Under the pieces are notes generated by a model. It was given only the letters and a program-made list of their open reading frames with translations, was not told the DNA's origin and searched no databases. Both the position numbers and the translations under genes were made by a program. A DNA stretch of 35,446 nucleotides from Anaerolineales bacterium. Its GTDB lineage: Bacteria > Chloroflexota > Anaerolineae > Anaerolineales > UBA6663. The number at the start of each line of letters is the position of its first letter. Position 1 is the first letter of the stretch. The DNA is taken from assembly GCA_034435515.1 (NCBI GenBank), contig DAOTXG010000013.1, positions 1 to 35,446 on the forward strand, given 5' to 3'. Shown in pieces: positions 5,499-32,724 of the stretch.

Positions 5499-6436
5499 AT
5501 GGACGCAACCGAAGCCCTGCTCAAAGAACTGACCGAAGCCCACGGCGTGCCGGGACACGAAGCCAAAATCCGCTCTGTGGCGCGCCGTCACCTGGAACCC
5601 CTCGGCGCGCTGGAGCAGGATAAGATCGGCAGCCTGATCTGCAAACAGCCCGGGACGAGCGAGACGCCGCGCGTGATGCTGGCCGGCCACCTGGACGAGA
5701 TCGGCTTTATGATCAAGCACATCACCAAAGAGGGCTTCCTCAAGTTCCTGCCGCTGGGCGGCTGGTTCGATCAGGTTCTCCTGGGCCAGCGCGTCGTGGT
5801 CAAGACCGGCAAAGGCGACGTGATCGGCGTGATCGGCGCGAAACCCCCGCACCTGCTCCCGCCCGACGAGCGCAACAAAGTCGTCGAGAAAAAGGCGATG
5901 TACATTGACATCGGCGCGACCTCTGGCGAAGAAGTCGAGGCCGCCGGGGTGCGCGTGGGCGACCCGGTCGTGCCGCTGGCCGACTTCCGCGTGCTGGCCA
6001 ATCCCAAGACTTATCTCTCCAAAGCCTTTGATAACCGGGTGGGCTGCGCGCTCGTCATCCAGACCTTGCAGGCGCTCCAGGCCGAAAGCCATCCCAACAC
6101 CGTCTACGGCGTGACGACGGTGATGGAAGAAGTCGGCGTGCGCGGCGCGACGACGCGCGCATGATCCCTAACCTGCGCCTGCGCGATCTGGTCATGGATA
6201 CCGCCAAAGAACTCGACGTCCCCCTGCAGACCTCGCTCATCGAGGGCGGCGCGACCGATGGCGCGGCCATCCACCTGCACAAGGGCGGCGTGCCCACCGT
6301 CGTCATCGGCGTGGCCGCGCGGCACATTCATTCGCACGGCGCCATCCTCCACCGCGACGACTACGACCACGCGCTCAAACTCGTCACCGGCCTCGTCCGC
6401 AGGCTGGACGCGGCAATGGTCGCCGGGCTGTGCTAG
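5499..6436 (+). pseudogene. M42 family metallopeptidase (FrvX/CelM/TET-like), disrupted by internal deletion plus frameshift
   Basis: The N-terminal 5499..6164 (ends ...TTVMEEVGVRGATTRA*) and C-terminal 6161..6436 (MIPNLRLRDLVMDTAKELDVPLQ...GGATDGAAIH...ARHIHSHG) parts lie in different frames. About 50 aa of the expected family core between them is absent, judged from recalled family length. Confidence 0.6.
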
Positions 6437-17622: not shown

Positions 17623-18132
17623 ATGACCGTCTCCCGTGACAACTCACTGGCCGTGTACAAAGGCATCAAAGACGCCGGCATCCGCTATCTTTCGGCGCTG
17701 CCGGAGACGTGGCTCGTGTATCTGCTGCAACTCGCGGAGGACGACCCCGACATGACCCTGGTGGAAGTGGCCAAAGAGGAGGAAGCCATTGGCATCGCCG
17801 CCGGGGCCTACTTCGCGGGCAAGCCCAACGCGCTGTTGATGCAGAACCACGGCTTCCTCGCCAGCCTCAACGGCCTCGTCTCGCTGGCCATGCTCTACCG
17901 CATTCCGCTGACCATGCTCATCGCCTTACGCGGCCACTGGGGCGAGCCTTATCCCTGGCATACGCAGGGCGGCATCCATACCGAGCCGGTGCTCCGCGGC
18001 CTCGGCCTCCCGTTTGAATACGCCCGCGACCCGCGCAAAGTCGGCCAGCAAATCAAAGAAGCGCTGACGTTTGCCAATAGCTCGCTCTCGCCGGTGGCGC
18101 TGCTGTTGACGAGGGAACTAATGGAAGACTAA
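17623..18132 (+). CDS. sulfopyruvate/phosphonopyruvate decarboxylase alpha subunit (TPP enzyme N-terminal domain, ComD-like)
   Basis: 169 aa. EEEAIGIAAGAYFAGKPNALLMQNHGFLASLNGLVSL matches the ComD-type pattern. Confidence 0.75.
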   Translation: MTVSRDNSLAVYKGIKDAGIRYLSALPETWLVYLLQLAEDDPDMTLVEVAKEEEAIGIAAGAYFAGKPNALLMQNHGFLASLNGLVSLAMLYRIPLTMLIALRGHWGEPYPWHTQGGIHTEPVLRGLGLPFEYARDPRKVGQQIKEALTFANSSLSPVALLLTRELMED

Positions 18133-18454
18133 GTAGCTGCCCAAAAGTTCTTACCGTATTTTCCTGCTCGCGGCGGATTTGTAATCCGCCGCCGGGGGCT
18201 GCCGGACGCTTCGCGCAAATCCGGCAGGAGCGAAAAGTAGAGAGAACTTTCAGAGACCAACTTAGTACAGTCCGGGCAGAAATTCGTCGCCGGTTTCCTA
18301 GACTTTTGGGGTCTCGCCCACTCCGCTTTGCTACGGGGTGCTTCGCAAGACCCCAAAGGTCTGCGCCCTAAACCGGTGAAGGATTTCCGCCGACGTGCAC
18401 CAGTCAGAGAGACCTTTGGGGTCTTGGAATCCCCAAAGATCTGGGAGAACCGCC
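18133..18454. repeat. cluster of small palindromic elements between the two decarboxylase subunit genes
   Basis: GCGGCGGATT-tgt-AATCCGCCGC (18170-18192) and CTGCCGGA...TCCGGCAG. There are also three hairpins of AGAC(C)-loop-GGTCT form (agacttttggggtct, agaccccaaaggtct, agacctttggggtct) plus the related cccaaagatctggg. Confidence 0.65.
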
Positions 18455-19042
18455 ATGAAACGCGCCGATTGCATCAAAGCCCTTTACCCGGAACTGGAAG
18501 ACCGCCTGGTCGTCACCATCATGGGCGCGTGCGCGCAAGAACTGTACGACCTCGGCCACCGCGAAAATTTCTTTTACCTGGAACACGCCATGGGCCTGGC
18601 CTCGTCCATCGGCCTCGGGCTGGCGATGAACTTGCCGGACGAGAAAGTGGTGGTGCTCGACGGCGACGGCTCGGTGCTGATGAACCTGGGCGGCCTGGCC
18701 ACCCTCGCCCGCTACCACCCGCCGAACCTGACGCACATCATCTTCGACAACGGCAGTTTGCTCTCGACCGGCGGCTTTGCCTCACATACCACGTCCGGCC
18801 TCACTGACCTGGCGGCGATTGCGCGCGGCGCGGGCTGTCCCAGCGTCACGCTCACCGCCAGCATCTACGATTTCCTGACCGCCGCCGCCGAAGCCTTCGA
18901 GAATAAGGTCATGTCGACCATCGTCGCCAAAGTCGAAGCCGTCGGCCCCGATCATTACGGCATGGACATGCACCTGCCGGAGAATGCGTTTAGGTTTCAA
19001 CGGTATATCCTGGAGAGACAAAAAGTAAAACGTAATTCGTAA
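18455..19042 (+). CDS. sulfopyruvate/phosphonopyruvate decarboxylase beta subunit (TPP-binding domain, ComE-like)
   Basis: Trimmed to the ATG at 18455 with GGGAGA 7 nt upstream. The TPP motif is VVLDGDGSVLMNLGGLATL...IFDNG. Confidence 0.75.
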   Translation: MKRADCIKALYPELEDRLVVTIMGACAQELYDLGHRENFFYLEHAMGLASSIGLGLAMNLPDEKVVVLDGDGSVLMNLGGLATLARYHPPNLTHIIFDNGSLLSTGGFASHTTSGLTDLAAIARGAGCPSVTLTASIYDFLTAAAEAFENKVMSTIVAKVEAVGPDHYGMDMHLPENAFRFQRYILERQKVKRNS

Positions 19043-20396: not shown

Positions 20397-21230
20397 TCAA
20401 GCCAGCCGCGTCCCGCACCCGACCGTCGTCAGTTCAAGGCAGTAAAAGCCGGGCCGGCGCAGCAGATAATCTGGGGACTCCGGTTCGAAAGCGCGTCTAT
20501 AAAGCTGCCGGTCTTCGGCGGACAGGAAAGGCTCAATGCGGCGCATCTGCCACGCCAGGACCAGTCGCCAGTATGTCTCCACTTCCTCGGGCATCGGGGC
20601 TATATCGTCGGAAACATACGTGTGAATGCACAACTCGTGGAAACCAGCCTGTTCCAGCCAGACCGCCAGATGGCGGGCCGCGTGATAGCGCTCCATCGAG
20701 ACGCCGTTTGGGCATTCGCTTTGCAAGTATTGGCGCCGGGCCTCCACTAAGCGACGCTCAAAGGCAGCCGGCAATGCCAGAATGGGATAATGAGCGTAAT
20801 CGTTTTCGACCACGACGATGCGACCCCCGGGCTGCAATAACCGTCGCAATGATTCGAGACGCCTCAGCGGGTCGGGCGCCGAATGCATCGTCCGGCAGAG
20901 CCAGATGGCGTCGAACACGCCAGAACACAAGCCCGCCTGCTCGATGTCGCTCAGGCATCGGTCGAACCGCTTCGCGTGGCTGTGGTCCAGATGGGTTTTC
21001 AACAGAGCCGAGTTGTGATCCACGGCGACGATGCGCGCCTCCGGGCCAAGCACCTCGGCCATGAGTTGACTGTAGAAGGCATCGCCGCAGCCTGCGTCGA
21101 GGACGAGCGCTCCCGGCCTCAGGCCGCTCCAGGCCTCTGCGAGGATGCGGCGATAGAGCGGTTCGCGCACGCGATGGTAGGCCTCCATTAAGGGCCAATA
21201 GTCTGGGACGGTTGTGCGCGCGATCATCAT
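20397..21230 (-). CDS. class I SAM-dependent methyltransferase
   Basis: Motif I is LVLDAGCGDAFYS, with the later GGRIVVVEND. The start is uncertain: ATG at 21230 or 21227, or GTG at 21251. Confidence 0.75.
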   Translation of the reverse strand: MMIARTTVPDYWPLMEAYHRVREPLYRRILAEAWSGLRPGALVLDAGCGDAFYSQLMAEVLGPEARIVAVDHNSALLKTHLDHSHAKRFDRCLSDIEQAGLCSGVFDAIWLCRTMHSAPDPLRRLESLRRLLQPGGRIVVVENDYAHYPILALPAAFERRLVEARRQYLQSECPNGVSMERYHAARHLAVWLEQAGFHELCIHTYVSDDIAPMPEEVETYWRLVLAWQMRRIEPFLSAEDRQLYRRAFEPESPDYLLRRPGFYCLELTTVGCGTRLA

Positions 21231-21310
21231 TTGCCGGCCGCCAGGCTGCACGACGTGAAGCGCCCTGTGAGGCCCATTGAGTATACTATAACTATAGTGG
21301 AGTTGCCCGC

Positions 21311-23238: not shown

Positions 23239-24366
23239 CTACACCAACAACTCCTTGTGCTTCGTCAAACAATCCATTAACCTGTCCACGTCTCCTTGAT
23301 TATTATAGAAGTGGGGCGAAATGCGCAAGTTGTCGTCGCGGCTGGAAGTTATAATTCCGTCAGATTCCAAACGCTTCACCAGCAGGTCAACTTTGTGCGA
23401 ACGCAGGGTGATCAGCGCGCCGTGCTTCTCCGGGTCAACCGGCGAGGCCAGGTTGAAGCCGCGCCGCATGGCGCCCTCCTTGATCGCCCCGGTCAACGCG
23501 CCGATCTCGGCCTGGATTTTCTCCAGCCCCACCGACTGGATCAGCTTCATCCCCGCGACCCCGGCGTACAGGCTGGGGACCGGCGGCGTGCCGGACTCGA
23601 AGCGGCGGGCGGTGGGCGAGGGCGTATTGGCGTAAATGTCCATCGCAAAAATATTGGCCTGCGAGAACCAGCCCATCGCCGTCGGCTGCAGGTCGGGCAC
23701 GAGGTCTCTGCGAATGTAAATGAACGCCAGCCCGGCCGAGGCCAGCAAATACTTGAGCACGCCGCCCGCCAGAAAATCCACTTTCAGCGCCTTCACGTCC
23801 ACCGGCAGCGTGCCAAGCGTCTGGTAGGCGTCCAGCAGCACCAGCGCGCCTTTGCGGTGCGCCATTTCCACAATCGCCGGCGCGTCGAGCCGCGAGCCGT
23901 TGCGGAAACAGACGTGCGTGATCGAAACCAGTTTCGTCCGCTCGTCAATCGCCTCCGCGAAGCGCTCCAGCGGGATGACGTGGCCCGCCGCCGGGACGTG
24001 AACCACCCGCGCCCCGCGCCGCTCCTGCGCGTGCCAGATTTGAGCGACAGTCGGGAACTCAAAATCGCTGACGACGACCTTGTTTCGCTCGCCGCCGAAA
24101 TCCAACGCGCTGGCGATGGCGCTCACCCCGGCCGAAACTGAGGTACAGTCGGCGACTTCATTCGGATCCGCGTTGACCAGCCCGGCAAAGGCGTGCCGCG
24201 CAATCTCGCTCCGCTCCACCCACAGTTCCCACGGCGAGCCTTTGTCGTCCCAATCCTGCATGTACTGAGCATAGGCTTTTTGGACTTCGACGGACAACGC
24301 GCCTTGCGAACAACTGTTGAAGTAAATTTTCTTTTCGAAAATGGGGAAGTGGTCGCGGAGGGACAC
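23239..24366 (-). CDS. class V aminotransferase / cysteine desulfurase-like PLP enzyme
   Basis: 375 aa. Pattern YFNSCSQGA..., ITHVCFRNGSRLD, DAYQTLG, GGVLKYLL (Lys region). Confidence 0.8.
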   Translation of the reverse strand: MSLRDHFPIFEKKIYFNSCSQGALSVEVQKAYAQYMQDWDDKGSPWELWVERSEIARHAFAGLVNADPNEVADCTSVSAGVSAIASALDFGGERNKVVVSDFEFPTVAQIWHAQERRGARVVHVPAAGHVIPLERFAEAIDERTKLVSITHVCFRNGSRLDAPAIVEMAHRKGALVLLDAYQTLGTLPVDVKALKVDFLAGGVLKYLLASAGLAFIYIRRDLVPDLQPTAMGWFSQANIFAMDIYANTPSPTARRFESGTPPVPSLYAGVAGMKLIQSVGLEKIQAEIGALTGAIKEGAMRRGFNLASPVDPEKHGALITLRSHKVDLLVKRLESDGIITSSRDDNLRISPHFYNNQGDVDRLMDCLTKHKELLV

Positions 24367-31874: not shown

Positions 31875-31936
31875 GATACTGTTCTCCTTATCAGATTCCT
31901 ACGATCTTAAGTAACTGTTCAGACCAACGTTCTTTC

Positions 31937-32028
31937 GAACGCTGATCACGCTGATCAGGCTGATTTTCGCTGAGTTTAAATAAAGAAGATCAGCGCCATC
32001 AGCGTATTTTTCAGCGGAATCAGCGTTC
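31937..32028. repeat. palindromic block built from 9-10 bp periodic GCTGAT units
   Basis: gaacGCTGATcacGCTGATcagGCTGATtttcGCTGAg ... agATCAGCgccATCAGCgtatttttCAGCggaATCAGCgttc. The outer 10 bp are perfectly complementary. Confidence 0.65.
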
Positions 32029-32069
32029 CCCACCGCTGGGCTGTAGCAGTTACAATCGTGAACTGCTTC

Positions 32070-32543
32070 TTATCCCCGGATCTCCGCCACTTTGGCCAAC
32101 AACTGCTCCACGTTCGGCGCGCCCTGCGGGATGACCTCGCTGTGGCGCACGACGCCGTCCCGGTCAACGATGATGATGGCGCGGCGGCTGTAGCCCTTGT
32201 CCTCGCGCCACAGCCCGTAGGCCTGGGTGACCGCGCCTTTCGGATGGAAGTCGGCCAGCAGCGGAAAGGCGATGCCGCCCAACTGCTCGGAAAAGGCCCC
32301 GTGCGAATGGACGCTGTCCACGCTGATGCCCAGCACCTGGGCGTTAAGCTCCTCGAAGCGGGAGAGATTCTCCTGCAGTGACCGGAGCTCAATCCGTCAA
32401 GTGCCGGTGAAGTCTAAAACGTAGAAAGCCAGCACGACGATCTTGCCGCGCAGCTCGGCCAGGCTGACCGGGCTGAGGCCCGTGTGCGCCGACAGTGAAA
32501 AGAGCGGGGCTTTCTCCCCGACCGCAATGGGGGTATCAGCCAT
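32070..32543 (-). CDS. peroxiredoxin (AhpC/TSA-BCP type) with in-frame TGA at the peroxidatic Cys position; candidate selenoprotein, alternatively a nonsense pseudogene
   Basis: The two track ORFs 32397..32606 and 32070..32336 are in the same frame and joined by a single TGA at 32397-32399. The ATG at 32543 has AAGGAAA upstream. The protein reads ...VVLAFYVLDFTGT[TGA]RIELRSLQENLSRFEELNAQVLGISVDSVHSHGAF...RRAIIIVDRDG..., 157 codons in total. Confidence 0.6.
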
Positions 32544-32724
32544 ACGACCATTTCCTTGTGGGTGAGAATGGGGGACATGATACACTCGCCCGCACGAAAA
32601 AAGCAAATTGGGCTACGATTGTCCTAATGGCAGGCGCGCCTCCGGTTCGCGAGGACGGCGAAGTTGTCTGTCCGCGAATAAACGCGAATTGGCGCGAATA
32701 GATTCCGAATTGTGTCTGGCCGAC

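Follow-up and report, generated by a model that had tools for sequence, protein, structure and literature searches.

A peroxiredoxin gene from an Anaerolineales bacterium with a probable selenocysteine codon at the peroxidatic position

Results

One peroxiredoxin reading frame is split by a single in-frame TGA

The window, by which we mean the whole 35,446-nt stretch of Anaerolineales DNA that was analyzed (contig DAOTXG010000013.1, assembly GCA_034435515.1), carries on its minus strand a frame of 157 codons plus a TAA stop (32072..32070) that runs from an ATG at 32543 to 32070. Its translation, MADTPIAVGEKAPLFSL...FYVLDFTGT*RIELRSLQENLSRFEELNAQVLGISVDS...RRAIIIVDRDGVV...IRG*, shows exactly one internal stop, a TGA at 32399..32397 that forms codon 49. 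The ORF list divides the gene into 32397..32606 and 32070..32336 (both minus strand), and the original prediction, which joined these two ORFs into one frame with a single TGA at 32397-32399, is thus correct on this point. A ribosome-binding site, AAGGAA (32552..32557, minus strand), places its AAGGA core 9 nt 5´ of the ATG (...CACAAGGAAATGGTCGT-ATG), and the N-terminus MADTPIAVGEKAP agrees with those of relatives, for example MPDTPIAVGEKAP in L081. The part upstream of the TGA (32400..32543, minus strand) comprises 48 codons and includes the V42-x-x-x-T46 portion of the active-site motif; the part downstream (32070..32396, minus strand) comprises 108 codons and the stop, and includes R121. 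Codon-position GC is gene-like in both halves, with GC3 values of 0.79 before and 0.88 after the TGA, compared with 0.72-0.89 for the Pfam-supported genes of the window.

Standard gene callers had been expected to miss such a gene, and every pipeline that we saw does so. The N-terminal piece is called as a separate ORF of 48 aa, or of 48-52 aa with weak AhpC-TSA matches in related assemblies and loci, and the C-terminal piece is usually annotated as a truncated "redoxin/peroxiredoxin" of 88-118 aa (the NCBI name for two such fragments, P0026 and P0044, is "redoxin domain-containing protein").

On the minus strand from 32543 to 23239, the peroxiredoxin gene is followed by a cupin gene, a gene for a 758-aa protein with two tandem Peripla_BP_6 domains (Liv-type substrate-binding), two BPD_transp_2 permeases, LivG- and LivF-like ATPases and a class-V aminotransferase. 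The same gene order is found in the related locus L169:9806-18682, where the C-terminal peroxiredoxin fragment is 78% identical. No thioredoxin-like partner or sel gene lies adjacent to the peroxiredoxin gene. In the 195-nt spacer between the peroxiredoxin stop and the cupin start (31875-32069, minus strand), repeated ACGCTGATC units and inverted copies form a long, imperfect hairpin (-71.1 kcal/mol, z -5.37). This element is unique in the window and absent from L169, in which the corresponding gap is 13 nt; a REP- or MITE-like palindrome, a terminator and an operator array are possible explanations.

We also noted two split coding regions elsewhere in the window. An M42-family aminopeptidase appears to be broken into 5499-6164 and 6161-6436 (both plus strand): the first ORF (221 aa, covering approximately positions 5-216 of a profile of ~350) ends in TGA, and the C-terminal part (91 aa, ...GGATDGAAIHL...HIHSHG...) lies in another frame, with ~40 residues apparently missing. 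The probable explanation is a pseudogene or an assembly frameshift, and we do not count the gene as a selenoprotein candidate. The N- and C-terminal domains of a TPP enzyme are encoded as two small ORFs (17623-18132 and 18395-19042, plus strand), in a layout that resembles a two-subunit decarboxylase and adjoins a putative cyclase, a methyltransferase-like ORF (20397-21251, minus strand) and a threonine-synthase-like PALP enzyme.

The predicted product resembles AhpE

For profile searches, Cys was put at codon 49 of the 157-aa product. Residues 8-134 matched positions 1-123 of the 124-position Pfam AhpC-TSA profile (PF00578; E 6.7e-34, 116.9 bits, cutoff 26), and the match ran through the in-frame UGA without a break. 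Of the solved structures, those of M. tuberculosis AhpE (Rv2238c; 1xvw, 4x1u) came closest and aligned over residues 7-143 with an E of 6e-24, and the seven highest-ranking PDB sequences were all AhpE/Rv2238c or AhpC/TSA proteins (153-164 aa). In the AhpE alignment, SRRAIIIVD of the window protein stands opposite ANRGTFVVD, and codon 49 is aligned with the peroxidatic Cys of FTGIC. The active-site motif reads V42-L-D-F-T46-G-T-U49, in which V42 (32418-32420) stands at -7, the place of the canonical Pro of the full PxxxTxxU motif. The Thr at -3 and the conserved Arg are retained, R121 being invariant in the homologue alignment, and the protein has no other Cys residue. The original prediction had placed the stop on the peroxidatic Cys of a T-x-x-C motif within a fold that was otherwise intact, including the conserved Arg, and both statements agree with the end-to-end AhpC-TSA match and with the alignment to the catalytic Cys of AhpE and of the homologues.

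Neither the window protein nor representatives of the other selenocysteine (Sec) clades described below (L017, L024, L031 and L074) reached the cutoff of any model in NCBIfam release 20.0. PrxU (NF040737) was the best model for the window protein, but its 85.9 bits fall short of the cutoff of 270, as do the 75-90 bits that this model gave for the representatives of the other two Sec clades. The BCP model NF006960 (thiol peroxidase) gave 54.7 bits against a cutoff of 140. Since both scores fall below cutoff and AhpE is the nearest structure, we consider the protein to be AhpE-like and neither a PrxU orthologue (the PrxU model has 233 positions versus 157 residues here) nor a BCP. The earlier assignment to "Prx/BCP" therefore holds for the peroxiredoxin part and fails for BCP. 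The complete CDS (32070..32543, minus strand), as judged by its translation, the AhpC-TSA profile and the AhpE alignment, is predicted to encode an AhpE-like peroxiredoxin with a single redox residue ("1-Sec").

TGA occupies the catalytic codon in three old clades

A search of 5.8 billion proteins gave matches at 64-98% identity that were all C-terminal, 88-118 aa long and limited to 53-67% of the query. Full-length proteins first appeared at 53-56% identity, with none above 56%, and these carry Cys at the catalytic position (FYPLDFSPVC...). In the DNA of 160 related loci (80 from species-representative genomes and 80 from metagenomes), the catalytic codon could be placed for a total of 157 sequences, the window among them. 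The column that corresponds to codon 49, a comparison already suggested with the original prediction, contains 109 TGA codons versus 48 Cys codons (41 TGC and 7 TGT). TGA forms occur in Anaerolineae and other Chloroflexota, Dehalococcoidia, Armatimonadetes, Thermoanaerobaculia/Acidobacteriota, Planctomycetota, Myxococcota, Binatia, Verrucomicrobiia and Bacillota, including the cultured Bacillota Aneurinibacillus tyrosinisolvens and Neobacillus driksii.

The Sec forms group into three pure clades in a neighbor-joining tree (32, 42 and 32 sequences), and by parsimony three changes between the Sec and Cys states suffice. The TGA thus appears old and stable, in contrast to what would be expected of scattered nonsense mutations. 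At every TGA locus the frame continues without a stop for at least 47 codons before the TGA and at least 105 codons after it. For the window and its 17 closest relatives (153 pairs), pN/pS was 0.32 over the 30 codons before the TGA and 0.29 over the 100 codons after it, and these values of ~0.3 on both sides indicate that both parts are translated in this frame. The absence of other lesions, noted originally for the window sequence, is therefore a feature of the TGA loci in general.

Variation around the catalytic residue was also seen. Val stands at -7 in 27 of 108 Sec forms, as it does in the window. In a set of sequences that are not phylogenetically independent, the motif Pro is replaced by Val, Ile, Leu or Ala in 33/108 Sec forms, all of the window-type clade, and is retained in 44/45 Cys forms; position -3, in the same non-independent sequences, is Thr in 106/108 Sec forms, and each of the 45 Cys forms sampled has Ser there. 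Two loci, L012:1430-1435 (an Armatimonadetes MAG) and L013:3124-3129 (a Dehalococcoidia MAG), have a Cys codon directly after the TGA (GG-U-C-DQV), and the adjacent Sec-Cys pair could form an internal selenenylsulfide.

A hairpin downstream of the UGA is specific to TGA loci

The 76 nt from 32405 to 32330 have a minimum free energy of -33.7 kcal/mol (z -2.89), which beats 200 of 200 shuffles. The hairpin within this segment (32344..32392, minus strand) lies inside the CDS, begins 4 nt after the UGA and has its apical loop 28 nt after the UGA. A 9-bp lower stem pairs UUGAGCUCC (32392..32384) with GGAGCUUAA (32352..32344), two further pairs join 32381..32380 to 32354..32353, and the upper stem-loop (32358..32376, minus strand; GC-A-GGAGA-AUC-UCUCC-C-GC) carries a bulged A at 32374 and the apical loop AUC at 32368..32366.

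Folding of the 60 nt after the catalytic codon separates the TGA loci from the Cys loci, with mean z-scores of -2.22 for 98 distinct TGA loci and 0.02 for 45 Cys loci (Mann-Whitney p = 2e-16). The midpoint of the hairpin apex is 33 nt from the U of the UGA in TGA loci (IQR 33-34), whereas in Cys loci it is scattered (median 44.5, IQR 37.5-49.5). In 84 of the 98 TGA loci, 25-29 nt separate the codon from the loop. The hairpin keeps its position in all three Sec clades, and its sequence in each clade is unrelated to those in the others. Ten window-type hairpins were used to build a covariance model, which was searched against 579 kb on both strands and matched only TGA sites (22 loci).

Since the register of the hairpin shifts by 1-3 nt between sequences, base pairing was assessed in the covariance-model alignment, which is fitted to the model and so favors the structure. 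In this model-fitted alignment, 77.5% of cells pair, versus 38-45% when partners are slid by 1-3 columns, and compensatory changes, on both sides, are seen in 11 of 18 pairs, compared with 4.3 ± 1.5 in shuffled alignments (0 of 500 as high) and 2-5 in slid ones. The upper helix (helix 2) in the same fitted alignment is 87.7% paired, with both-side changes in five of seven pairs. The ungapped codon alignment, scored for the named structure, gave a weaker result in the same direction (67.5% paired versus 34-43% slid), and RNAalifold on the ungapped codon-anchored alignment returned a trivial 3´ helix only.

The minimum-energy apical loop, AUC in the window or ACC in relatives, is without guanosine. 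G30, counted from the UGA, sits in the second closing pair and would be exposed only if the top two pairs were open, and the best-conserved unpaired bases are A32 (26/30) and the bulged A26 (24/30). Loops of the Thermoanaerobaculia-type clade read GAGAU. Rfam gave no match for the window at the gathering threshold or at E values up to 10; to our knowledge Rfam has no bacterial SECIS model, and this null may carry little weight.

Two hairpins had been pointed out as possible SECIS candidates in the original prediction, and both can be drawn as described. The one that contains the UGA (32379-32399) is rejected as a conserved element because it does no better than shuffles in 30 relatives (241/500 for pairing and 268/500 for covariation). 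The other (32358-32376) proves to be the upper stem of the larger 32392..32344 hairpin, extended by the 9-bp lower stem, and a covariance-model analysis of the 60 nt after the UGA, as had been proposed, finds a SECIS-like hairpin specific to TGA loci. Collectively, these data characterize the predicted, conserved 32392..32344 hairpin as bSECIS-like, with a spacing typical of SECIS elements.

Search for Sec machinery and other selenoproteins

Pfam and NCBIfam scans of ~35 ORFs of the 35-kb window found no selA, selB or selD. ARAGORN found no tRNA genes in the window and no tRNA-Sec among seven tRNAs in 854 kb of related loci. The sole window protein with a loose connection to selenium is the class-V aminotransferase (23239..24366), which comes nowhere near any of the cutoffs for cysteine desulfurases, SclA and kynureninase (60 bits versus 525 for SclA, for example). 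When the window was searched for further in-frame TGAs with long, high-GC3 open frames on either side, no second selenoprotein candidate emerged; all matches were either antisense shadows of genuine genes or the broken M42 peptidase. That the organism can decode Sec is suggested by the comparative signature at codon 49 together with the literature, in which Chloroflexi and Acidobacteria include selenoprotein users (PMC1794560).

Discussion

We consider it very probable, on comparative sequence evidence, that the region encodes one 157-residue AhpE-type peroxiredoxin with selenocysteine as its peroxidatic residue. The recoding reading put forward in the original prediction now has the support of the codon column, the selection on both sides of the UGA, the independent assemblies described below and the TGA-specific hairpin. 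We infer selenium insertion, the binding of the hairpin by SelB, the identity of the reductant and the substrate, and the steps would be as follows. Sec-tRNA(Sec), brought by the elongation factor SelB, would read the UGA at codon 49 while SelB is tethered to the stem-loop in the CDS 3´ of the UGA. The U49 selenolate, positioned and activated by T46 and R121, would attack the O-O bond of the peroxide and give a selenenic acid. Since the window protein contains no further Cys, recycling of the enzyme would depend, as in 1-Cys AhpE, on a thiol partner from outside, of the thioredoxin or glutaredoxin type.

Other readings of the UGA were weighed against Sec insertion. We think it improbable that the codon is read through without Sec, by a near-cognate or suppressor tRNA that would insert Trp or Cys, with the hairpin acting as a stimulator of read-through or as a pause signal. 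UGA followed by C is a weak termination context, and UGA-C is what the window has; the absence of Sec machinery from the 35-kb window and of the consensus G from the apical loop also fit this account. However, it is precisely the redox-active Cys that is recoded, and the site and its counterparts in homologues make up a Sec/Cys pair, which is the signature that defines selenoproteins (PMC1088965, PMC1794560). Trp at position 49 would kill catalysis, Cys could be directly encoded, as it is in 48 homologues, and the spacing and form of the hairpin fit a bacterial SECIS in three clades with unrelated sequences.

It is very improbable that the locus gives two separate products, a 48-aa peptide and an independently started C-terminal fragment of ~88 aa. 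Each piece would lack the catalytic residue and part of the thioredoxin fold, the TGA is crossed without a break by both the Pfam domain and the AhpE alignment, and the downstream "start" varies among relatives such that the fragments range from 88 to 118 aa. These points outweigh the fact that all pipelines annotate the gene in this way and that GTG, ATG or TTG codons are present 3´ of the TGA.

A pseudogene, created by a nonsense mutation in the catalytic Cys codon, would require one base change only (TGC or TGT to TGA), and at least one other gene of the window, the M42 aminopeptidase split at ~6161, appears to be broken. This reading is effectively refuted, with the same TGA at 109 loci from many phyla and in three old pure clades, no additional lesions, pN/pS of ~0.3 on both sides and a dedicated hairpin in TGA loci only; no frameshifts or further stops were seen in close relatives. 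Equally remote is a sequencing or assembly error at 32397-32399 that hides a real TGC or TGT, which has nothing in its favor except the prior chance of a single-base error and is excluded by independent assemblies of near-identical strains of the same organism (ENA ERZ27245685, JGI 3300022563 and JGI 3300009691), all of which have TGA at codon 49, with 2-8 differences from the window elsewhere in the gene. Genome-wide reassignment of UGA is ruled out, since TGA is the ordinary stop of 11 of the 24 other Pfam-supported genes in the window, as in the standard code.

With Sec at codon 49 as the preferred reading, AhpE-like selenoperoxiredoxins are likely undercounted, because pipelines split the gene and no NCBIfam model reaches its cutoff. 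This would affect Chloroflexota, Acidobacteriota, Planctomycetota, Myxococcota and some Bacillota. With a protein model of their own and the hairpin model, such genes would be recovered and the lineages marked as selenocysteine users. In addition, the clade supplies small 1-Cys peroxiredoxins as natural Sec/Cys pairs, among them a variant that lacks the canonical Pro, and these could be used to study the contribution of selenium to peroxide reduction. The main value is practical, in the correction of annotation, and the current view of selenocysteine recoding is unchanged; the Val-for-Pro active site and the SECIS loop without G are minor curiosities. We regard as doubtful the further idea that the Chloroflexota-type clade may be a distinct, uncatalogued AhpE-like "1-Sec" subfamily, defined by VxxxTxxU (Pro to Val, Ile or Leu) and by a SECIS loop without the consensus G. 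Were it true, it would point to an altered active-site geometry permitted by selenium chemistry and to a SelB with different RNA recognition.

Comparison with known systems

The window hairpin resembles bacterial SECIS elements of the E. coli fdhF type in that it lies in the CDS directly 3´ of the UGA and has a small loop with bulges below. The bSECISearch consensus places the apical loop 16-37 nt from the UGA, and the ~28 nt of the window is inside this range. It differs in the loop, which is predicted to be a triloop without G in the window-type clade and is GAGAU in the Thermoanaerobaculia-type clade. The apical-loop guanosine has been emphasized for bacterial SECIS elements (PMC1088965), and some known selenoprotein genes depart from the SECIS consensus (PMC9312934).

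Among solved structures, the closest likeness is to AhpE (Rv2238c; 1xvw, 1xxu, 4x0x, 4x1u), which has a similar length (~153 aa versus 157), the FTG-x-C/U motif and the conserved Arg; like this 1-Cys type, the window protein is without a resolving Cys. AhpE, however, has Cys and the motif Pro (FPLAFTGIC), where the window protein has a predicted Sec and Val. AhpE is reduced by mycoredoxin/mycothiol, which Chloroflexota are not expected to have. Reportedly, experiments by Sohling and colleagues in 2001 showed PrxU of Eubacterium acidaminophilum to be a Sec-peroxiredoxin. The Sec of PrxU, like the one predicted for the window protein, is at the peroxidatic position, and the PrxU model (NF040737) is the best-scoring one in NCBIfam, but the match is far below cutoff and the model is considerably longer, as given above.

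Peroxiredoxins with TxxU (PF00578) are an established family of prokaryotic selenoproteins (PMC13188914, PMC1088965, PMC5029168), and the Sec-for-Cys exchange at the peroxidatic residue was rightly treated as known in the original prediction. The family accounted for 91 proteins in 78 organisms in a survey of ~5200 genomes (PMC5029168) and for 43 genes in the Sargasso Sea data (PMC1088965), and a 2026 review lists it as PF00578/TxxU, experimentally verified, with the motif PxxxTxxU (PMC13188914). In our literature search we found no paper on an AhpE-like subgroup of Sec-peroxiredoxins. The window gene shares with the family the AhpC/TSA domain, a predicted Sec for the peroxidatic Cys, widespread Cys homologues and a stem-loop directly 3´ of the UGA, and departs from it in the Val of its clade (VxxxTxxU versus PxxxTxxU) and in a minimum-energy apical loop without G. 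The gene is thus not new in kind, and is an additional member of the established Sec-peroxiredoxin family, in an AhpE-like subgroup.
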